This document shows, in pieces, positions 9,040 through 47,276 of a stretch of DNA of 64,000 bases. Within the stretch, counting starts at the first letter, position 1. Every line of letters begins with the position of its first letter. Source of the stretch: Alphaproteobacteria bacterium. GTDB lineage: Bacteria; Pseudomonadota; Alphaproteobacteria; UBA11073. The stretch covers positions 1,566,642 to 1,630,641 of the forward strand of contig OZ251979.1 in assembly GCA_965246755.1 (NCBI GenBank). The letters run 5' to 3'. The notes under the pieces are model-generated. The model searched no databases. It was given only the letters and a program-made list of their open reading frames with translations, and was not told the origin of the DNA. A program made the position numbers and the translations under genes.

Positions 9040-10230
9040 ATGGCAACGGCAGCATCAAAAAAGAAAATTGTATCTAAACAATTAGTTAAATCAAAAAAAC
9101 TTACAAAATCAGTTAAATCACCTGTGAAAGCAAAAATGCCAGTTAAAAAAACGGTCGCCAAAAACATCACAACAAAAACAAAAGCCGTCACTAAACCTGT
9201 CGTTACAAAAACCGTTAAAGCTACTCAGTCTAAAGTCAAAGCTAAAAGTATGCCGGTCAAAGGTAAGGTAGCTAGCAAGGCGAAGCCGGTGGCGAAAAAG
9301 GTTGTAAAGCCAGTGGCTAAAAAAGCCGTGTCCAAGCCTATGGCCAAAACTCTTGCAAAAAAAACCATCATTCAAAAGCCGGTTGCCAAAGCCGCTAAAA
9401 TTGTAGCAAAACCGGCCATCACCGCAAAAACCGTGACTAAAGTCAGTAAGGCGGCCGCCGTGCAGCCTGCTAATAATAATCAGCTGCCTGCAATTGCCGT
9501 CGCCGCGCCGAAAAAGGTTAAAGCGCCAGCGCGCAACAAGAAACAAAAGGCGCTGGATAAAAAACTGGCGCGGACTTTGGTTAAAATCGCTAATGCCGGC
9601 CGCACCGGTCTGGCCAGCACGGGCGTGCAATCCGCGGCGGATGCCGCGTTGCGCGCCACGATGGCGATGGCCGCCAATACCAATAATGCACAAACCGCCG
9701 CGCCAGTGGTGGCGGTGGCTCCGGCCCAGCCAGCCAAATTGGAATTCTCCACCGGTGAAATGGTGGTCTATCCCGCCCACGGCGTTGGCCGGGTGGAAGG
9801 CGTTGAAACGCACACGATTGCCGGTACGGATGTCAAACTGTTCAAAATTACCTTTGAACATGACAAGATGACGTTAAAAGTGCCGGTGCAACGCGCCACC
9901 GGCTCCGGTCTGCGCCGCCTGTCGTCCAAGGATGTCATGAAAAATGCCATGGAAACACTGCGTGGCCGCCCGCGCATTCGCCGCGTCATGTGGTCACGCC
10001 GTGCGCAGGAATATGAGCAAAAGATTAACAGCGGCGATCCGGTCGCCATTGCCGAGGTCTTGCGCGACCTGCGCCGCAACGCGGAGTCGGGCGAGCAGTC
10101 TTATAGCGAACGTCAAATCTTTCAGAACGCGTTAGATCGTTTGGCGCGTGAAGTGGCTGCGGTTGAAAAAATTGAACATGAGAAAGCCGTTAAAAAATTG
10201 GAAGATGTGTTGACAAAAACGGCGGCCTAA
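9040..10230 (+). CDS. cdnL: CarD/CdnL-family transcription factor with ~230-aa N-terminal histone-H1-like Lys/Ala/Val/Thr-rich domain
   Basis: C-terminal 165 aa: FSTGEMVVYPAHGVGRVEGVETHTIAGTDVKLFKITFEHDKMTLKVPV...SERQIFQNALDRLAREVA = CarD_CdnL_TRCF domain; N-terminal KKxVAKP/KAVTKP repeats. Confidence 0.8.
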   Translation: MATAASKKKIVSKQLVKSKKLTKSVKSPVKAKMPVKKTVAKNITTKTKAVTKPVVTKTVKATQSKVKAKSMPVKGKVASKAKPVAKKVVKPVAKKAVSKPMAKTLAKKTIIQKPVAKAAKIVAKPAITAKTVTKVSKAAAVQPANNNQLPAIAVAAPKKVKAPARNKKQKALDKKLARTLVKIANAGRTGLASTGVQSAADAALRATMAMAANTNNAQTAAPVVAVAPAQPAKLEFSTGEMVVYPAHGVGRVEGVETHTIAGTDVKLFKITFEHDKMTLKVPVQRATGSGLRRLSSKDVMKNAMETLRGRPRIRRVMWSRRAQEYEQKINSGDPVAIAEVLRDLRRNAESGEQSYSERQIFQNALDRLAREVAAVEKIEHEKAVKKLEDVLTKTAA

Positions 10231-28083: not shown

Positions 28084-29250
28084 TTGGGGGGCCTCATGCC
28101 GGTTACACCAGACACATATATAATAAGTGAGGCCGAGCGGCTGGCCTGGTTGCGCCTGTCGCGCAGTGAAAATGTCGGCCCCATCACCTTTAACCGCCTG
28201 CTGCGGCAATTCGGCTCTGCCGTCCGGGCGCTGGACGCCATCCCTGACCTGGCCCGCCGCGGCGGGCGCCTGCAAAAACTGAAGATCCAAAGTGAGGCGG
28301 ATGGCCGCGCGGAAATCCAGGCCCTTACCAAACTGGGGGCCCGGCACCTGTTATCCTGTGATGCCGCTTACCCCGCCATCCTGCGCCATTTGGAAGATGC
28401 GCCGCCGGTTTTGACGGTGAAGGGCAATCCGGCGCTGCTCGAAAAACCGATGGTCAGCATCGTGGGCGCGCGGAATGCCTCGCTGCCCGGCCGGCGCATG
28501 GCGGAAATTCTAGCCGCAGAATTGGGCCAAGCCGGCTATACTATCGTCTCCGGTCTCGCGCGCGGGATTGATACCGCCGCGCATGGCGCTAGCCTTACCG
28601 ACGGTACAGTGGCCGTGGTCGCGGGCGGTATTGATATTGTTTATCCGGCGGAAAACCAAACCCTGTATGACAAGATTTGCGCGCAAGGTATTGTAATTGC
28701 GGAAAATCCGCCAGGGGTGCCGCCCACCAACCGTGACTTTCCCCGCCGCAACCGCATCATCTCCGGCCTCGCCCTCGGCACCGTCATTGTCGAGGCTGCG
28801 CTGAAATCCGGCTCGCTCATCACCGCGCGTTATGCGCTGGAGCAAGGGCGCGAAGTGTTTGCCATCCCCGGCTCGCCCCTTGATCCGCGCGCCGGCGGTA
28901 CCAATAAATTAATCAAGGATGGCGCAACCCTGGTGGAAAGCGCCGCCGACATTATAAATGTGTTGCGAAATATGCAGGAACCAACCGCCCTTGCCGAGCC
29001 GTGGCAAACCTACCGCAATGCGCCGCTGCAATATGATGATAATGCCGTGGCGGTCGCACGGCGGCGCACGCTGACCGATTTGCTATCCTTCACCCCCGTA
29101 ACGCTGGATGAAATCCTGCGCACGGGCGAGGTCAATCCGGCGGCGCTCCACACTGCCCTGCTCGAACTTGAACTCGCCGGGCGCGCCCAGCGCCTGTCCG
29201 GCAACCGCGTTATTTTGGCGACTGATGATACAGAAATGAAGGCAATGTAA
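28084..29250 (+). CDS. dprA: DNA processing protein DprA (Smf)
   Basis: Rossmann-like DprA core IVSGLARGIDTAAHGASL..., C-terminal winged-helix region. Confidence 0.85.
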   Translation: MGGLMPVTPDTYIISEAERLAWLRLSRSENVGPITFNRLLRQFGSAVRALDAIPDLARRGGRLQKLKIQSEADGRAEIQALTKLGARHLLSCDAAYPAILRHLEDAPPVLTVKGNPALLEKPMVSIVGARNASLPGRRMAEILAAELGQAGYTIVSGLARGIDTAAHGASLTDGTVAVVAGGIDIVYPAENQTLYDKICAQGIVIAENPPGVPPTNRDFPRRNRIISGLALGTVIVEAALKSGSLITARYALEQGREVFAIPGSPLDPRAGGTNKLIKDGATLVESAADIINVLRNMQEPTALAEPWQTYRNAPLQYDDNAVAVARRRTLTDLLSFTPVTLDEILRTGEVNPAALHTALLELELAGRAQRLSGNRVILATDDTEMKAM

Positions 29251-31904
29251 TGGCACAAGATAACCTCGTCATCGTCGAAAGTCCGGCCAAAGCTAAAACC
29301 ATCGAAAAATATCTGGGGCCGGATTATAAAGTCCTCGCCAGTTTCGGGCATATCCGCGATCTGCTGCCCAAAGATGGCGCGGTGCGCCCCGATGAAGACT
29401 TCGCGATGGATTGGGTGCTGGGCGACCGTGCTCATAAAAATGTCAAAGAGATTGAACGCGCCGTTAAAACCTCTAAAACATTATATCTTGCGACCGACCC
29501 GGACCGCGAGGGCGAGGCCATTTCCTGGCATGTCAAAGAATATCTGGATGAAAAGAATTTATTAAAAGGCCGCACTATTCATCGCGTCACTTTTAACGAA
29601 ATTACCAAAAGCGCGATTCAGACTGCGTTTAAGCAGCCGCGGGAAATCAATGCCGAGCTGGTTGAAGCTTATCTGGCGCGCCGCGCGCTGGATTTTTTAG
29701 TCGGCTTTAACCTGTCGCCGATTTTGTGGCGCAAATTGCCGGGCGCACGGTCGGCGGGGCGGGTGCAGTCGGTCGCGCTGCGCCTCATCTGCGAACGTGA
29801 ATTTGAAATTGAACAGTTTAAGCCCCAAGAATATTGGTCAGTTGAAGCGCTGTTTCAAACGAATAGCGGCGCCACTTTTACCGCGCGGCTAACGCATTTT
29901 GACGGCCAAAAACTGGACAAATTTGCCATCAATAACGAAACGCGCGCGCAAGAGATTCTAGCCGCATTGCAAAAACAAAATTTTACCGTCAGCGATGTGA
30001 CGAAGAAAGAAGTCAAACGTCATCCGGCCGCGCCATTTATTACCTCAAGCTTGCAGATGGAAGCGTCACGCAAACTCGGTTTCGGCGCTAGCCAAACCAT
30101 GCGCACCGCGCAAAAACTTTATGAAGGCGTGACGCTGGGCGGCGAAACGGTCGGACTTATCACCTATATGCGGACTGATGGCGTGCAATTGTCCCAAGAT
30201 GCAATCTACTCCTGCCGCACGACGATTGATAAATTGTACGGCCAGGATTATTTGCCGGAACAACCACGCATCTATTCATCAAAAGCCAAAAACGCGCAGG
30301 AAGCGCATGAGGCAATTCGCCCCACCGATCTCGCGCGTACGCCTGATTACGTCGCCAAATATGTCGATCATGATCAGGCGCGGTTGTATGAATTGATCTG
30401 GAAACGCACGTTGGCCGCGCAGATGGCTAGCGCGGTTCTGGACCAGGCTACCGTCGATATTACCGGCACGAACAAGGCGGCGTTCCGCGCCACCGGTTCG
30501 GTGGTGAAATTCGACGGGTTTTTTAAACTCTATTTTGAAGATACTGACGATATGCCGTCTGACAGTGAGGATAATCGCCGCTTGCCGCCGCTGACTGTCA
30601 AAGACGCGTTGCAGACGAACAGCATTAAACCCGAACAGCATTTCACGCAGCCGCCGCCACGTTTCAGCGAGGCGTCGCTGGTCAAGGCCTTGGAAGAGCT
30701 TGGCATCGGCCGCCCTTCTACCTATGCCTCGATCATCCAGGTGTTGCAGGACCGCAATTATGTGCGGCTCGATAAAAAGCGTTTTGTGCCCGAAGATCGC
30801 GGGCGGATTGTCACAACCTTCCTTACCAATTTTTTCCGCCGTTATGTGGAATATGATTTTACCGCCGCGCTTGAAGGCCAGCTGGATGAAATTTCCGCCG
30901 GCGCGTTGGATTGGAAAGACATGCTGCGCAAATTCTGGGTCGAATTTATCGGCGCGGTCGATGAAACCAAACCACTTACCATCACGCAGGTGATTGATGT
31001 GCTGGATGCGGAGCTGGATAAGTTTTTATTTCCGCCGCGCGCAGATGGCAGTGATCCGCGCAAATGTCCGCGTGATAGTGGTCGCCTTGGTTTAAAGCTC
31101 GGTAAATTCGGCGCCTTTGTCGGCTGCTCGAATTATCCGGAGTGCAAAGAAACGCGGCCATTGGGTCTCGCCGAAAGCGCCGCCGCTGCCAACGGCGGCG
31201 GTGTGTTTGAACCGCGTGAAATCGGCATTGATCCTGACAGTGGTGAAGTTATCACCATCAAGCTTGGCCCCTATGGCCCTTATCTCGAACGGCCTAATGG
31301 TGACAACAAGCCCAAACGCGCGTCGTTGACGCCCGGCACCAACCTGGATGCCATTACGCTGGAAGATGCCGTCAAATTATTATTGCTGCCGCGCGAGGTG
31401 GGGATTTTCCCCGAAACCGGCGATCCGATTTACGCCAACGTCGGCCGGTTCGGGCCCTATATTCAAACCGGTAAATTGCTGGCGTCATTGCCCAAGGGTG
31501 AAACGGCGCAGGATATCGGCCCCAACCGCGCGGTGGATATTTTGATGGAGAAAATTGCGCGCAGCCTGCCGGTTAAAGAATTGGATAATCATCCAGACGA
31601 TGATGCGCCAATCGGCATTTATCGTAGCCGGTTTGGTTTTGTCATTCGTCATAATGATATCGAGGCGCGCCTTGCCAAAGGCACCGACCCACAAGACATC
31701 GACAGTGCCACCGCCATTTTGTTATTAAAGCAGATGGGCAAACCGGCGTTCAAATTTGGCAAGAAAAAGGGCAAAGGTAAAACCACCGCGCCAAAGAAAA
31801 CAGCTGTTAAAAAAACCGCCGTGAAAAAGACAGCTGCCAAAAAAACTGCCGCTAAAAAATCTGCGGTAAAAAAGACCGCCGCTAAGCAAGTTACGGCAAA
31901 ATAA
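29250..31904 (+). CDS. topA: DNA topoisomerase I with C-terminal Lys-rich (VKKTA)n tail
   Basis: TOPRIM N-terminus (LVIVESPAKAKTIEKYLG), catalytic Tyr region, C-terminal Zn-ribbon-like repeats, terminal KKTAVKKTAVKKTAAKKTAAKKSAVKKTAAK. Confidence 0.9.
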   Translation: MAQDNLVIVESPAKAKTIEKYLGPDYKVLASFGHIRDLLPKDGAVRPDEDFAMDWVLGDRAHKNVKEIERAVKTSKTLYLATDPDREGEAISWHVKEYLDEKNLLKGRTIHRVTFNEITKSAIQTAFKQPREINAELVEAYLARRALDFLVGFNLSPILWRKLPGARSAGRVQSVALRLICEREFEIEQFKPQEYWSVEALFQTNSGATFTARLTHFDGQKLDKFAINNETRAQEILAALQKQNFTVSDVTKKEVKRHPAAPFITSSLQMEASRKLGFGASQTMRTAQKLYEGVTLGGETVGLITYMRTDGVQLSQDAIYSCRTTIDKLYGQDYLPEQPRIYSSKAKNAQEAHEAIRPTDLARTPDYVAKYVDHDQARLYELIWKRTLAAQMASAVLDQATVDITGTNKAAFRATGSVVKFDGFFKLYFEDTDDMPSDSEDNRRLPPLTVKDALQTNSIKPEQHFTQPPPRFSEASLVKALEELGIGRPSTYASIIQVLQDRNYVRLDKKRFVPEDRGRIVTTFLTNFFRRYVEYDFTAALEGQLDEISAGALDWKDMLRKFWVEFIGAVDETKPLTITQVIDVLDAELDKFLFPPRADGSDPRKCPRDSGRLGLKLGKFGAFVGCSNYPECKETRPLGLAESAAAANGGGVFEPREIGIDPDSGEVITIKLGPYGPYLERPNGDNKPKRASLTPGTNLDAITLEDAVKLLLLPREVGIFPETGDPIYANVGRFGPYIQTGKLLASLPKGETAQDIGPNRAVDILMEKIARSLPVKELDNHPDDDAPIGIYRSRFGFVIRHNDIEARLAKGTDPQDIDSATAILLLKQMGKPAFKFGKKKGKGKTTAPKKTAVKKTAVKKTAAKKTAAKKSAVKKTAAKQVTAK
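31791..31885 (+). repeat. 15-bp tandem repeat (~6 units) encoding the (V/A)KKTA pentapeptide tail of TopA
   Basis: Units gttaaaaaaaccgcc / gtgaaaaagacagct / gccaaaaaaactgcc / gctaaaaaatctgcg / gtaaaaaagaccgcc. Confidence 0.8.
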
Positions 31905-32524: not shown

Positions 32525-34473
32525 AACACACTAAACACCGCAAAGCTAAATCAAGCCCACCCAAAAGCGTCCAACACAAAAACGTGGCGCGAAAATTTGC
32601 CGCCGGTAAAATCAAACCGCAGGCGGCAGCAACGCGTCCCGCGATTGAGTCTGGTTTTGTCATGGGCATCGCCAAACGCCAGGGCAAAACATTTTTAATC
32701 GAAAGTGTTAGCAAGCGCGACCATAACAGCTATCAGCTCGCCGATGGTAAAAAACACGGCATCAACGATGGTGACCTGGTCAAAGTCAAACTTGACCCAC
32801 GCAGTAAGGAACACAAACTAAAACGCGTCGAATTTGTCGAGAATTTTGGTGATATCAACAATGCCGGTACCTTTAGCCTGATTGCCATCCATTCCCTTAG
32901 CATCCCGCATGAATTTCCGGAAGAGGCTTTGGCACAAGCCGCGCAAGGTGCGGTGCCGTCGCTGGGCGCGCGTGAAGATCTCCGCAACATATCGCTCGTC
33001 ACCATCGACGGTGCAGATGCGCGCGACTTCGACGATGCGGTCTTTGCCGAGCCCGACGGCAATGGCTGGCATCTGATTGTCGCGATTGCCGATGTGTCTT
33101 ATTATGTGCGGTCGGGCAATGCGCTGGACCAGGAGGCGTTTAACCGTGGCAATTCCGTCTATTTCCCCGACCGCGTCGTGCCGATGTTGCCGGAAGCGCT
33201 GTCCAATGACCTATGTTCACTGCGACCCAACGAACCGCGTGCGGCGATGGCCGTGCATCTATGGATTAATGCCAATGGAAATTTACAAAAACATAAATTC
33301 ACGCGTGCCCTGATCCGTTCGCATGCCCGGCTGACCTATGAACAGGTGCAGGAGGCACGCGACAGCAATGCCGACAAAACCACCACGGCGCTGATGGATA
33401 AAGTTATCAATCCATTATACAGCGCTTATCAGGCTTTGCTGAAGGCACGGCTTAAACGCGGTACGCTTGACCTCGATGTGCCGGAACGCAAAGTACAGCT
33501 GGGTGATGATGGCAAGGTTATTGCCATTGTGCCGCGCACGCGGCTCGACAGTCACCGGCTAATCGAAGAGTTTATGGTGTTGGCGAATGTCGCGGCGGCG
33601 ATGGAGCTTATCAAACATAAATCACCCTGTATCTTCCGCATCCATGACCATCCCGACGTCACCAAGCTGGATATTGCGCGCCAGGTGTTGAGCAGTATGG
33701 GATTGGAATTGGCGAAGGGCAATAAACTCGCGCCGAAAGATTTTACCAAACTGCTGGACGAAACGCGCGGGCGTGAGGATGCGCATGTCGTGCATCAACT
33801 GATTTTACGCAGCCAAAGCCAGGCGATCTACAGCCCCAACAACATCGGTCACTTTGGCCTCGCGCTGGAACGCTATGCGCATTTCACGTCGCCCATCCGC
33901 CGCTATGCGGATTTGATTGTACATCGCAGCCTGATCCGCGCGCTGGATTTGGGTGATGGTGGTCTTACGGATTATGAAGCCAAACAGGTCGATAAAATCG
34001 CCGAACATATTTCGGTCACCGAACGCCGCGCGGTCGAGGCCGAACGCCAGACCATGGATCGCTATACAGCTTCTTTTTTGGAAAATGAAGTCGGCGCGGT
34101 TTTCAACGCGCGTATTTCATCGGTCACACGCTTCGGTTTGTTTGTCACGCTAGACGACACCGGCGCAGATGGCATCATCCCCATGCGCAATTTGGGCGGT
34201 GATTATTTTACGCATGACGAGCCGCGCCAACAACTGGTCGGCCAACGCACCAAATATGTTTACAAGCTGGGGCAGCGTCTGACGGTAAGATTGCTGGAAG
34301 CCAATGTCTTGACCGGCGGCCTGGCGTTTGAGCCGGTCCAGCAAGTTTTGGAGCAGCCTGCCCCAAAAACAGCTGCAAAATCTTCTGCCGCCAAGCCGAC
34401 TGCCACCAGCCGCAGTTTTAAACAGCGTCCGGGCAGTGCCGCCCCGCAAAAACCTCGTCAACGTCGCCGCTAA
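32521..34473 (+). CDS. rnr: Ribonuclease R; start set at the ATG overlapping the parE stop (ATGA)
   Basis: RNB catalytic domain (FFPDRVVPMLPEALSNDLCSLRP, HFGLALERYAHFTSPIRRYADL), C-terminal S1 domain and basic tail. Confidence 0.85.
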   Translation: MKHTKHRKAKSSPPKSVQHKNVARKFAAGKIKPQAAATRPAIESGFVMGIAKRQGKTFLIESVSKRDHNSYQLADGKKHGINDGDLVKVKLDPRSKEHKLKRVEFVENFGDINNAGTFSLIAIHSLSIPHEFPEEALAQAAQGAVPSLGAREDLRNISLVTIDGADARDFDDAVFAEPDGNGWHLIVAIADVSYYVRSGNALDQEAFNRGNSVYFPDRVVPMLPEALSNDLCSLRPNEPRAAMAVHLWINANGNLQKHKFTRALIRSHARLTYEQVQEARDSNADKTTTALMDKVINPLYSAYQALLKARLKRGTLDLDVPERKVQLGDDGKVIAIVPRTRLDSHRLIEEFMVLANVAAAMELIKHKSPCIFRIHDHPDVTKLDIARQVLSSMGLELAKGNKLAPKDFTKLLDETRGREDAHVVHQLILRSQSQAIYSPNNIGHFGLALERYAHFTSPIRRYADLIVHRSLIRALDLGDGGLTDYEAKQVDKIAEHISVTERRAVEAERQTMDRYTASFLENEVGAVFNARISSVTRFGLFVTLDDTGADGIIPMRNLGGDYFTHDEPRQQLVGQRTKYVYKLGQRLTVRLLEANVLTGGLAFEPVQQVLEQPAPKTAAKSSAAKPTATSRSFKQRPGSAAPQKPRQRRR

Positions 34474-37503: not shown

Positions 37504-38620
37504 TTAAACCCTATCTTCCTTCTTATCCACCCGGGCCGCCAATGCTGCGGCCATGAATTTGTCGAGGTCGCCGTCGAGGACGCCCTGGCTGTCCGTCGTT
37601 TCAACCTCGGTGCGCAAGTCTTTCACCATCTGGTAGGGATGCAGCACATAGGAACGGATCTGGCGGCCCCAACCGATCTCGGTTTTTTCGGCTTGATATT
37701 CAGCGAGGTTATCCTCGCGCTTTTTGAGCTCCAATTCATATAGGCGCGCGCGAAGCATTTGCATGACCATGACGCGGTTTTGGATTTGCGAGCGCTGCTG
37801 TTGCGACGCGACCACAATGCCGGTCGGGATGTGCGTCACGCGCACCGCGCTGTCCGTTTTATTAACATGCTGGCCGCCCGCACCCTGCGCGCGATAGGTG
37901 TCAACGCGCAAATCTTTATCGAGGATTTCAACGTCAATCGTATCGTCAATCTCTGGCGAGACCAGCACTGCCGCAAAGCTGGTATGCCGCCGCGCGTTAC
38001 TGTCAAAGGGCGAAATACGCACCAACCGGTGCACCCCGGCCTCGGTCTTTAACCAGCCATAGGCATTATGCCCCACGAACTGCACGGTGGCGGATTTTAT
38101 ACCGGCGCCATCGCCATCAATTTTGTCTATCAATTCAACTTTATAATTATGTGCTTCACCCCAGCGCAGATACATGCGCAGCAGCATGTCAGCCCAGTCT
38201 TGGGCCTCCGTGCCGCCACTGCCAGAATTAATTTCGAGATAGGCGTTGTTGGCGTCCGCCTCCCCCGACAATAGCGTTTCCAGTTCACGGCGCGCTGATG
38301 TTTGCTGCAGGCTAATGATCACCTGTTCGGCTTCGCGCACGATACCGGCGTCGCCCTCGGCTTCGCCCAGCTCAATCATCTCCGCCGCATCGCGTAAGTC
38401 GGTTTCCATTTGACTAATATTATTGAGCACAGTTTCCAGTTTAGCTTTGTCACGCATCACGCTTTGCGCGCGTTTGGCGTCCAACCATAAATCCGGATTT
38501 TCACTTTGCGAGGTTAAATCACGCAGACGATAGCATGCGGCATCCCAGTCAAAGATGCCTCCTCAGCAATGATATGCATTGCTCTACTTTATGTTTTGCA
38601 CTTATTATTTCTGCACGCAT
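37504..38620 (-). CDS. prfB: Peptide chain release factor 2, with programmed +1 ribosomal frameshift
   Basis: Frame 0 reads [23 protein letters not shown] then stop at CTT TGA C; the +1 frame continues [29 protein letters not shown]... through the SPF motif and GGQHVN. Confidence 0.85.
38548..38554 (-). promoter_or_regulatory. prfB +1 frameshift site CTT TGA C with an upstream internal SD-like AGGAGG
   Basis: Minus-strand sequence gctgAGGAGGcatCTTTGACtgg; classic autoregulatory RF2 recoding signal. Confidence 0.85.
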
Positions 38621-43981: not shown

Positions 43982-44109
43982 TATTATGTTTCGTTTACAT
44001 AATTTTTATATGCCATGCGTGCTGTTTTTGCACATGTATAATGCAACTGTGCAATCTGTTAAAAAAATGCTAGATTCGTTGCCTAAAACTTGAACAGGAG
44101 AATTTCAAG

Positions 44110-44775
44110 ATGGCAACTCAGAACAAAAATAATCTTTTATCCGAAATCACTGACGGTCTTGGCGATGCAATGGACGCATTCCAAAAACGTTGGGCGGACG
44201 GCGCCGGTACGGGACGCGGCAAATCTGCCAGCAAATCGTCAAGCCGCAGCACCTCCAGCCGGACTGGCGCGCGCAAAACCACTGCAAAAAAATCCAGCAC
44301 CGGCACGCGCAGCACAACTGCAAAAAAACCGACCGCTAAAAAATCAACGGCCAAAAAAACCACTGCCAAAAAATTAACTGCTGGCCGTAAAGCGACTACC
44401 ACCGCGCGCAAGGCAACCACTGCTGCCAAACGCAGCACAACTGCCACCCGCAAAACCGGCAGCGGCACGGCGCGTAAATCTGGTACTGCCGCACGCAGCA
44501 CCGCAAAAAAATCCACGGTGCGCAAGTCAACTGCCGGTAAGGCTACCAGCCGCACTGCCGGCAGCAAAGCCGCTGCCCGCAAGTCAACTGGCAGCAAAAC
44601 AACTGCACGTAAATCAACTACAAGTCGCAGCAGCACGACAGGACGTAAAGCCACCACTGCGGCACGCAAAGCAGTTTCAACTGCGAAACGTGCTATTGGT
44701 CGTGCAACGACTGGCCGTAAAACCGCTGGTCGCCCGTCAACGGCAAGCCGCACCGGTAGCAGCCGCAGCAGATAA
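44110..44775 (+). CDS. Histone-H1-like, highly basic low-complexity protein (A/T/K/R/S repeats)
   Basis: 221 aa; after a ~40-aa N-terminal region the rest is (A/T)(K/R)K(S/T)T-type repeats; followed by a strong terminator. Confidence 0.6.
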   Translation: MATQNKNNLLSEITDGLGDAMDAFQKRWADGAGTGRGKSASKSSSRSTSSRTGARKTTAKKSSTGTRSTTAKKPTAKKSTAKKTTAKKLTAGRKATTTARKATTAAKRSTTATRKTGSGTARKSGTAARSTAKKSTVRKSTAGKATSRTAGSKAAARKSTGSKTTARKSTTSRSSTTGRKATTAARKAVSTAKRAIGRATTGRKTAGRPSTASRTGSSRSR

Positions 44776-44795
44776 TTTCATCTGTGATATTTTTA

Positions 44796-44825
44796 AAAAG
44801 CGGGCTGTGGCCCGCTTTTTTTTAT
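44796..44825 (+). terminator. Rho-independent terminator
   Basis: aaaaagcgggctgtggcccgc hairpin plus T9. Confidence 0.7.
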
Positions 44826-44878
44826 TCATAATATGCTATAAATTATGTGACTGTAATACACTAACGATTGAGATAGTA

Positions 44879-46076: not shown

Positions 46077-46295
46077 TTATTTATGACGATAAATAACCCG
46101 GCCTTTGGTCAGGTCGTATGGCGTCATCTCAACCCGTACTTTGTCCCCCGCTAAAATACGAATGCGGTTTTTACGCATTTTTCCGGAGGTGTGCGCCAAA
46201 ATGGCATGGCCGTTCTCAAGCTCAACCCGAAACATCGCGTTGGGGAGCAGTTCCTTGACCACCCCGTCAAATTCAATCAAATCTTCTTTAGACAT
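46077..46295 (-). CDS. infA: Translation initiation factor IF-1
   Basis: 72 aa; [28 protein letters not shown]... Confidence 0.9.
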
Positions 46296-46400
46296 AGCGC
46301 GGTTTTACGCGGCATAGCCTAGGATGACAAGCTAAATTAAGCCTTTAAAGGCTTTCTATAATTATGAAAGTAATAAAAAGTTTGCGCATGTAATTATTTA

Positions 46401-46799
46401 ATGATTAACTTAATAGATAAATCTAGGGAGATACAAATGAACCGGAGAGACCAGCTATTAAATGTTATTGGCATAATAGAAGATTATTTGAATTCTTTTG
46501 AATTTTGGGTGACCCGTGACGAAGACCTTACTTTGTTACTTAAGGCTGATAAGTGTTTTGAAAGCTTTCCCCGTCAAGAACAGGCTATTTTTAAAAAATT
46601 TGGTATTAATGTAACAGTAGAAGGAACTTTGTTGCGGTTGGATACGACGCAAGAAAATTTGAAAAGTAATCTTAGTAAGATGGTTTCTTATCGAGGAGGT
46701 TTTAATTGGGGACGCGTAAAAACTTTGCCAGAACCGCGACGAAATGATGCGCGTGTGTTTAGAAATGCTAGCCAATGGGGTGGCTGGGTTGGCCCTTAA
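46401..46799 (+). CDS. Hypothetical protein (AT-rich)
   Basis: 132-aa ORF in a low-GC patch; no family recognised. Confidence 0.3.
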   Translation: MINLIDKSREIQMNRRDQLLNVIGIIEDYLNSFEFWVTRDEDLTLLLKADKCFESFPRQEQAIFKKFGINVTVEGTLLRLDTTQENLKSNLSKMVSYRGGFNWGRVKTLPEPRRNDARVFRNASQWGGWVGP

Positions 46800-47276
46800 T
46801 CACCGCCGCTGCACCAGCAAGAACAACAGCGTATACAGCAACCGTGCCGTGCCAAGATCCATGGTCAGCTGCGGGGCGAGCTGTTGCATCACCATCTCCG
46901 CGCCTTCATTATGCATCGCGCGGCGGCCCATATCGATCGCCTCAATGCGCGCGCCAGGCGCCTGATGGCGCAGTGCCGAACCGTGCGCGCCAATAATCAT
47001 ATCATAATCCTGCATGATGCGTTTGAGCGGCGACATATAAATGGGAACGTCCAGCGGTTGTTCCAACAGCGGACCGCTCACATGCAGATGCAGCGCATGA
47101 TCAGTCAGGTCGAAAATAAAATTATAGGGTGGCGGGCCACCTTGCGAAAAGACCGCCGCACCTTCGCGGATTTCACCGCACACTGTTTCACAATCCTGGC
47201 GTAAGACATCGGGCAGGCGATCCAACGTGTTAGGCATGATGGTAACGGCGGTAAGACAGGTGCTGTTGAGGAACAT
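46800..47276 (-). CDS. UPF0262-family protein (possible alternative start at 47237)
   Basis: C-terminal ...RIEAIDMGRRAMHNEGAEMV... matches the conserved UPF0262 core; murA neighbourhood typical of alphaproteobacteria. Confidence 0.6.
   Translation of the reverse strand: MFLNSTCLTAVTIMPNTLDRLPDVLRQDCETVCGEIREGAAVFSQGGPPPYNFIFDLTDHALHLHVSGPLLEQPLDVPIYMSPLKRIMQDYDMIIGAHGSALRHQAPGARIEAIDMGRRAMHNEGAEMVMQQLAPQLTMDLGTARLLYTLLFLLVQRR

Follow-up and report, generated by a model that had tools for sequence, protein, structure and literature searches.

The 64,000-nucleotide stretch of the alphaproteobacterial contig OZ251979.1 analyzed here (positions 1,566,642 to 1,630,641 of the forward strand, hereafter the window) includes on its + strand, at 44110-44775 with the stop codon included, an open reading frame (ORF) for a 221-amino acid protein that combines a short N-terminal segment with a long, evenly patterned polycationic tail. 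We propose, with a probability of roughly 0.6, that this gene encodes a small nucleoid-associated protein of the abundant type and of the bacterial histone-H1-like or Hc2-like kind. It is a lineage-specific addition to this known kind of protein, by analogy and not by homology.

The mirror of this gene on the minus strand is also open: a 211-amino acid ORF with a GTG start lies at 44118-44753. Because the third codon positions of the + and minus frames are shared, ordinary synonymous-site variation cannot tell the two strands apart, and for this reason a test based on the degeneracy of the Lys and Asn codons was used instead. The tail has 30 AA[N] codons, and every one of them is AAR (Lys) rather than AAY (Asn). 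Of these sites, 14 are four-fold degenerate in the minus frame, and a purine was found in 14 of 14 cases, against a background of 32% purine at sites that are four-fold degenerate in both frames (P=1.4e-7). The codon log-odds score, for which 27 long genes in the window served as the training set, was 0.276 for the + frame, the highest of all frames, and 0.112 for the mirror frame; the synonymous-codon preference was 0.19 and 0.05, respectively, with a gene mean of 0.22. The period-3 power of 44110-44775 was 16.2, compared to 0.74 +/- 0.45. Upstream of the mirror ORF there is no Shine-Dalgarno (SD) sequence, and its product matched no Pfam or other family. These results demonstrated that the + frame is under constraint at the protein level and that coding is to be assigned to the + strand rather than to the mirror ORF. 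Mirror ORFs with shared wobble positions can thus be resolved by the Lys/Asn degeneracy test.

The sequences that flank the gene agree with this assignment. An SD-like AGGAG (44096-44100, + strand), read from the sequence, is located 9 nt upstream of the ATG. An intrinsic terminator (44795-44828, + strand) with an 11-bp G+C-rich stem, a 4-nt loop and a T-run begins 20 nt past the stop codon, between this gene and creA; its free energy is -20.2 kcal/mol (z=-5.0), and 0 of 200 dinucleotide shuffles folded as well. On the other side, a 128-bp AT-rich intergenic spacer (43982-44109, GC content ~0.42) is common to this gene and a divergent gene coding for a 109-amino acid lipoprotein-like protein. 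Two candidate -10 elements, TGTATAAT (44035-44042) and TGcTAGATT (44068-44076), were located in the spacer, although the promoter assignment is only a candidate and a consensus scan of its + strand detected no complete -35/-10 promoter. Since the gene is divergent from the lipoprotein-like gene and is followed by a terminator before creA, the arrangement indicates that it is transcriptionally separate from its neighbors. A previous sequence-only reading had described a standalone 221-amino acid ORF with an SD-like sequence and a strong terminator at this location, and had named antisense noise as the finding that could undo it. The ORF and both signals are present as described, and the codon scores, the Lys/Asn test, the SD sequence and the terminator all favor the + strand and disfavor 44118-44753.

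Repetition is weak at the level of the DNA. Analysis with Tandem Repeats Finder (TRF) identified only two short degenerate arrays in the gene, with periods of 15 and 30 nt, a length of ~60 nt each and 73-85% matches. The most regular of these (44315-44381, + strand) consists of 4.5 copies of a 15-nt unit with 75% matches that encodes (T/P/S)TAKK pentamers; the other is found at 44560-44619, and the remainder of the tail is degenerate. As the arrays are short and degenerate, the gene is not a recent slippage array. An Rfam scan of the region yielded no match at gathering score, and the weak matches were all on the terminator hairpin.

Residues 1-35 of the protein are of ordinary sequence, with a net charge of -2, and include MATQNKNNLLSEITDGLGDAMDAFQK. 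The basic repeat tail (residues 36-221; 44215-44772, + strand) extends for 186 amino acids and has a net charge of +55. Its composition is T 24%, A 18%, S 17%, K 16%, R 13% and G 8%, six residues that together account for 97% of the tail, and its entropy is 2.7 bits; the isoelectric point of the whole protein is ~12. The ~57 basic residues of the tail (31 Lys and 26 Arg, nearly half Arg) stand alone or, mostly, in pairs; there are 19 dibasic pairs, and three basic residues never follow one another. The tail can be divided into 36 units of 1-8 residues with the consensus [S/T/A]-T-[T/A]-[A/S/G]-[K/R]-[K/R], the most common lengths being 5 residues (12 units), 4 and 7 (seven units each) and 6 (six units). 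With the exception of two terminal dipeptide units, adjacent basic clusters are 4-8 residues apart (standard deviation 1.36). This regularity was equaled by 0 of 20,000 composition-preserving shuffles, and 0.075% of them matched its small maximum gap. The pattern therefore goes beyond composition alone. The label "Lys/Ala-rich" given to the protein in the sequence-only reading does not fit, as the order of abundance in the protein is Thr>Ala>Ser>Lys>Arg; Pro represents 1% (2 of 221 residues) and Thr plus Ser 41%.

A single-sequence AlphaFold model of the protein has no globular domain. It predicts a non-repetitive N-terminal helix (residues 3-32; 44116-44205, + strand) with a predicted local distance difference test (pLDDT) score of ~71-83, followed by a tail that is mostly low-pLDDT disorder, with helical propensity at residues 90-110 and 176-207. 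These helix-prone stretches overlap regions in which most dibasic pairs have a spacing of 7 residues. The helix at the N-terminus is amphipathic, with mainly acidic polar residues. For residues 7-29 the hydrophobic moment amounts to 1.44, compared to 0.57+/-0.29 for shuffled sequences, 0.34% of which reached it. Neither a signal peptide nor a recognizable secretion signal is present in this acidic, polar, helical N-terminus.

Hc2 is built of consecutive pentamers with two basic and three small residues, has a length of 165-237 amino acids and starts with a 24-amino acid non-repeat N-terminus; in Hc2 and the Hc2-like BpH1 proteins the charge is evenly distributed, and these proteins bind DNA and RNA (PMC2848022). 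The window protein resembles this group (HctB of Chlamydia and the proteins of Bordetella, Burkholderia and Herminiimonas) in being a standalone product of 221 amino acids with a 35-amino acid N-terminus and spaced basic units, and it conforms to the published pattern of evenly spaced units of two basic and about three small residues, within the length range and after a short N-terminus. It has none of the 36-amino acid repeat elements (pentamers plus one hexamer) of the C. trachomatis type, and no 108-nt element was detected by TRF. It also differs from Hc2 and BpH1 in its variable unit length, in spacers made of Thr/Ser instead of Ala/Val/Pro, in a content of Arg that nearly equals that of Lys, in its alphaproteobacterial host, and in an N-terminus that is a predicted acidic amphipathic helix unrelated in sequence.

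The second group of proteins with which it can be compared is that of AlgP and PhaF, in which a helical N-domain is followed by a basic repeat tail that binds DNA, and which position polyphosphate (polyP) or polyhydroxyalkanoate (PHA) granules on the nucleoid; the net charge of AlgP is +55 (PMC9239181). The window protein shares with them the succession of a helical N-terminal part and a disordered polycationic tail, and the charge of its tail is the value of the whole AlgP. The KPAA tandem repeats of AlgP/PhaF are absent, with only two Pro in 221 residues, and in place of an N-domain of more than 100 amino acids there is a single helix. In eukaryotic H1, the C-terminal domain is a disordered, highly basic, low-complexity tail in which Ser/Thr are found beside basic residues. 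The comparison of bacterial basic tails with this protein was drawn in PMC9239181. The standalone protein is rich in Thr/Ser/Arg and not in Lys/Ala/Pro as the H1 tail is, lacks S/TPKK motifs and has no detectable homology to it. The winged helix of linker histones was not found either: Pfam Linker_histone did not match at E<=1, no relative was detected in the PDB, and the model is devoid of globular domains.

The only family-level matches were to H1-like models, all of them over approximately residues 38-217 (Pfam and NCBIfam). Pfam PF07382 HC2 matched with 27.8 bits (E=3.2e-6; residues 38-217 against profile positions 8-174), below the gathering cut-off of 40; NCBIfam NF038053 hist_H1_lk_Burk with 16.9 bits (E=0.0058), below the curated cut-off of 80; and NCBIfam NF038052 histone_lik_HC2 with 13.3 bits (E=0.071), below the curated cut-off of 135. 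According to these scores the protein sits in no curated family. Because the curated scores, the 36-amino acid elements, the KPAA repeats and the large N-domain were all looked for and the protein falls short in each, we do not claim that it belongs to the Hc2, BpH1 or AlgP families. The comparison to Hc2, AlgP and BpH1-type proteins that the sequence-only reading had suggested thus led to an analogy in pattern and architecture, not to family membership. Likewise, its term "H1-like" holds for composition and pattern but not for family, given the cut-offs that were not reached and the lack of a detectable homolog.

Searches for homologs gave little. An exhaustive phmmer search of 1.84 billion representative proteins produced 0 matches, not even a self-match. 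A word-indexed search of 5.8 billion proteins returned three weak matches, one repeat protein annotated as HC2 and two HU proteins that carry (TTAKK/TTARK)n tails; the N-terminal 50 amino acids did not share three 5-residue words with any protein in this search. The sensitivity of the searches is low for the 35-amino acid N-segment alone, and distant relatives could escape. A metagenome scan with the protein detected only (TTARK)n blocks from high-GC organisms, which matched the tail only, and no match to the N-terminal pattern MDAFQKRW. One of these blocks is embedded in a 638-amino acid protein (L018), and another (L019) follows an HU protein with a Lys/Ala tail (85-522, +) as a separate 174-amino acid (TTARK)n protein (536-1060, +). 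The latter high-GC contig is an instance of a standalone H1-like gene beside hup. The best match in a sequence search of the PDB had an E value of only 1.6 and corresponded to a Lys-rich region of the RNA polymerase sigma factor SigA chain. PHROGs, PADLOC, plasmid tblastn and Rfam provided no meaningful match, and with these blanks the phage, defense-system, plasmid and RNA-gene readings were dropped.

The sequence is also missing from a large protein collection. The 221-amino acid protein, a variant starting at Met21 and six antisense variants were all absent in an exact look-up in a collection of 15 billion proteins. Five other products of the contig, namely CdnL, TopA, CreA, the lipoprotein-like protein and the flanking M48 peptidase, do have entries there. 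It therefore seems that no predicted protein was ever called or deposited for the gene, which could reflect either gene calling or the preparation of the resource. We propose that the sequence would be lineage-specific and evolve by composition rather than by position, which would be the reason why homology searches fail and may also explain the absence from databases.

A single candidate for a second member was identified, a 135-amino acid metagenomic protein designated P0001 (JGI Ga0455888_0053299, L020 926-1333). Starting at its Met19, it has an acidic N-segment of the form MAT...DGL...AD.AG followed by (STAKK)n, as in the standalone protein, and units of the types STAKK, PTAKK and TTAKK are present in both. 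The comparison of the N-segments gave a local score of 39 against 19.4+/-3.8, a value that 0.045% of shuffles reach. P0001 differs in that it is shorter, has perfectly regular pentamers, and is found in a contig of 60.5% GC with other neighbors (downstream of a DUF2188 gene). These similarities are only suggestive of a loose family formed by both proteins.

The window encodes other polycationic modules, which are attached to known DNA-transaction proteins. The CdnL protein (9040-10230, + strand) starts with an N-terminal extension of ~240 amino acids rich in Lys/Ala/Val/Pro (9040-9759, + strand). CarD_TRCF_RID (48.3 bits, cut-off 23) and CarD_C (79.4 bits, cut-off 23.1) then follow at residues 236-387, which places the protein in the CarD_CdnL_TRCF family. 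The extension has a net charge of +53 over residues 1-225, and there is no Arg in its Lys-rich core (9100-9450). That it is coding was confirmed by the Lys/Asn-discriminating sites, of which 29 of 30 hold a purine against a background of 48.5% (P=1.2e-8), by the fact that frame +0 is the only open one, and by a period-3 power of 10.9 versus 0.74. The ortholog in a Micavibrio sp. metagenome-assembled genome (MAG; L003 ~260-1090, -) has a 119-amino acid K/A/P/T-rich extension before a CdnL core that is 65% identical, so that at least this usage of a basic extension is a trait of the lineage, present at about half length in the MAG ortholog. In a published survey of alphaproteobacterial CdnL proteins, these have >90% coverage to the Caulobacter protein and no extension is mentioned (PMC5324124). 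The nearest precedent for the extension is CarD, an RNA polymerase-binding protein of the same family with an H1-like DNA-binding domain (Garcia-Heras et al. 2009 PNAS, cited in PMC5324124). The DNA-binding domain of CarD is C-terminal (PMC2919716), whereas CdnL carries its ~240-amino acid basic module at the N-terminus. Of the three modules of the window, this extension is arguably the most unusual. The CdnL of the window ends in Ala-Ala, a C-terminal motif linked to proteolysis of Caulobacter CdnL in the survey (PMC5324124).

In topoisomerase I (29250-31904), which has the Toprim, Topoisom_bac and C-terminal repeat domains, a 48-amino acid Lys-rich tail (31758-31901, + strand) follows the last Toprim_C_rpt. 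It contains six KKTA/KKSA pentamers at 31791-31885 and ends in ...PKKTAVKKTAVKKTAAKKTAAKKSAVKKTAAKQVTAK. A C-terminal tail with Lys repeats stabilizes the TopA-DNA complex and raises processivity, and was described as a characteristic of actinobacteria (PMC5714199); here, in contrast to the enzymes of Streptomyces and other actinobacteria, the tail is found on an alphaproteobacterial TopA. A six-frame scan of the whole window detected exactly three long basic low-complexity modules, plus one short basic tail of 32 amino acids (AKSSAAKPTATSRSFKQRPGSAAPQKPRQRRR; 34375-34470, + strand) on the RNase R-like (RNB/S1-domain) protein encoded downstream of topA.

The CdnL and TopA modules were found where the sequence-only reading had located them. 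The view that the window carries three H1-like modules was borne out as to their number, but they are not of one kind: those of CdnL and TopA are exclusively Lys-based with V/P/A (35 Lys and no Arg; 19 Lys and no Arg), whereas the standalone protein has 31 Lys and 26 Arg and is rich in Thr/Ser. As the compositions differ and only words of 9-13 nt are common to the three, the sequence comparisons indicate that the modules arose independently and are not paralogous. Mutual duplication was ruled out by the compositions and because the modules resemble one another neither as DNA nor as protein. No standalone counterpart occurred in 161 kb of related genomes, where the only basic modules were the CdnL extension and the C-terminal tails of two orthologous ~290-amino acid proteins that we take to be Ku-like. 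The latter, from two related MAGs (tails at L004 3355-3468 + and L009 3203-3325 +), end in a Lys-rich basic tail (…KKTAAKAARKPVAKKTTATKKRRKAG). Within the window, and in the case of CdnL within the lineage as well, it is plausible that DNA-transaction proteins repeatedly make use of polycationic modules.

A model for the function of the standalone protein can be drawn from the behavior of Hc2, BpH1 and the AlgP/PhaF tails. As an intrinsically disordered polycation, it would bind nucleic acid in a non-specific manner, and its evenly spaced dibasic clusters would neutralize backbone phosphates of DNA, RNA or polyphosphate, leading to compaction or bridging. In two stretches with a 7-residue spacing of the dibasic pairs (93-115 and 179-194), binding could make the tail helical and bring the basic residues onto one face. 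The helix at the N-terminus would serve in self-association or in contact with a partner or surface, comparable to the dimerizing N-domain of Hc1 or the amphipathic helix of PhaF. In E. coli, Hc1 and Hc2 cause the nucleoid to condense, and the window protein would be expected to have the same effect. The many Thr/Ser residues are potential phosphorylation sites that could weaken binding. By the same analogy, we infer that the protein binds and compacts DNA and may be regulated through Ser/Thr. The presence in the same window of polycationic modules on CdnL and TopA, which are certain to act on DNA, lends support to this proposal.

Several points weigh against the proposal. The protein is below the cut-offs of both curated H1-like families, and its composition departs from those of classical H1, AlgP and Hc2 by the very low Pro, the 41% of Thr plus Ser and the Arg that makes up nearly half of the basic residues. 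The collection that holds the products of neighboring genes lacks this one; public gene calling may not have supported the ORF, or the entry may have been kept out. The creA-anchored loci of 17 related genomes were not syntenic and included no basic standalone ORF; no ortholog was found by the sequence searches. The role in DNA is derived from analogy, and since polycations bind any polyanion, the ligand could be DNA, RNA, ribosomes or polyP.

Alternative explanations were considered. One of them assigns the protein to the tethers of the AlgP/PhaF type, with the N-terminal helix attached to a polyP or PHA granule, or to another surface, and the tail to the nucleoid or to polyP; its function would be to position granules and not to organize the chromosome globally. 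The two-part design of helix and polycationic tail, the +55 charge shared with AlgP (PMC9239181) and the significance of the amphipathic helix are consistent with this role. However, the N-segment has ~30 residues compared to 124 in AlgP and ~140 in PhaF, there is no KPAA and hardly any Pro, no phasin or AlgP-type family of Pfam or NCBIfam matched at E<=1, and no polyphosphate (ppk, CHAD) or PHA (pha) genes are present among the 41 ORFs of the window that were scanned, so that a tether appears unlikely. RNA-binding proteins often have disordered tails rich in Arg and in Ser/Thr, and the polycation could instead be directed to RNA or the ribosome, as a translation silencer or an RNA chaperone acting, for example, in a non-growing dispersal stage. 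Repression of translation and an RNA affinity above that of Hc1 have been reported for Hc2 (PMC2848022), and infA, prfB and argS are nearby in the window, but they do not form an operon with the gene, which has its own SD sequence and terminator. As there is neither an RNA-binding domain nor a match to a ribosome-factor family, we consider this role quite improbable.

A more radical possibility is that there is no functional gene, either because the ORF is a by-product of a biased, repeat-derived stretch or because the antisense ORF is the real gene. The two frames have their wobble positions in common, which leaves both strands open, and the missing entry in the 15-billion-protein collection, self-match and ortholog are what would be expected if the ORF was spurious. 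Against it, Lys is maintained over Asn in the + frame (P=1.4e-7), this frame scores best in the codon analysis with a synonymous usage close to the average, and the SD sequence and terminator fit it; the antisense ORF has a GTG start and neither SD sequence nor family match, and the DNA repeats are short and degenerate. Moreover, without the gene there would be ~0.9 kb of non-coding DNA, with nothing at Rfam gathering score, in a densely packed region. It is thus very unlikely that the ORF is not a gene. Finally, polycationic peptides are generally antimicrobial, and the protein might be exported by an epibiotic predator as a protamine- or histone-like antimicrobial or an effector that binds the DNA of the prey. 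Besides this general activity, the sole support is the Micavibrio-like placement of the host by CreA and CdnL. The predatory lifestyle of the source organism is itself inferred, the N-terminus has no secretion signal and there are no adjacent secretion genes, which makes such an anti-prey function extremely improbable.

The proposal of an H1-like nucleoid protein also has a bolder version, which we regard as a long shot. In it, the helix of the MAT...DGL type and the S/T-T-A-K-K tail would define an unrecognized, fast-evolving family of developmental nucleoid condensers like Hc2, which together with the CdnL and TopA extensions would form a lineage-wide, charge-based control of chromatin. P0001 would be the second member of this family, and gene callers and homology searches would systematically miss it. 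The host would be small-celled and possibly predatory, and the switch would consist of Ser/Thr phosphorylation or of the acidic N-terminal helix folding onto the tail.

The window has a GC content of 50.3% and is an unremarkable part of the chromosome of an alphaproteobacterium with flagella. It includes flagellar hook/basal-body genes, cdnL, the pyruvate dehydrogenase complex, argS, dprA-topA-rnr, prfB, histidine kinases, and genes for an outer-membrane efflux protein and an M48 peptidase, as well as creA, maf, infA, a UPF0262 protein gene and murA. CreA shares 65-81% identity with its counterparts from MAGs labeled Micavibrio sp. or Alphaproteobacteria, and the similarities of CreA and CdnL point to a Micavibrio-like host. 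Apart from itself, the next relative by ranking of the neighboring M48 peptidase is 36% identical and none exceeds 38%; the lineage is therefore poorly sampled. The neighborhood of creA differs in 17 of 17 related genomes (L001-L017), and close CreA loci carry inconsistent MAG labels, namely Micavibrio, Rickettsiales, Bdellovibrionales and Patescibacteria. Elsewhere in the window, prfB (release factor 2; 37504-38620, minus strand) has the classical programmed +1 frameshift site AGGAGG CAT CTT TGA C at ~38546-38562, and the 326-amino acid ORF listed for it misses the first ~25 codons, which are in another frame from the ATG at 38620. A 132-amino acid ORF (46401-46799, + strand) between infA and the UPF0262 gene had no Pfam, PHROG or PADLOC match. 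It lies in a low-GC island at 46200-46800 (33-41% versus 50% overall) and could have been inserted recently or be an orphan.

Among bacteria, H1-like polycations have been described in only a few lineages, namely Chlamydia, Bordetella and other Burkholderiales, Pseudomonas and Actinobacteria, and in these they control nucleoid compaction, developmental transitions or the positioning of granules. The gene described here adds a clear H1-like case in a Micavibrio-like alphaproteobacterium, with a spacer chemistry rich in Thr/Ser/Arg, an acidic N-terminal helix and invisibility to standard annotation resources as its distinctive features. Genes of this sort can escape such resources, as this one did with no family, no homolog in 1.84 billion proteins and no entry in a collection of 15 billion, and low-complexity basic ORFs merit detection methods based on composition and pattern. 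The larger question raised by these findings is whether polycationic modules are systematically attached to the DNA and transcription machinery of this lineage.

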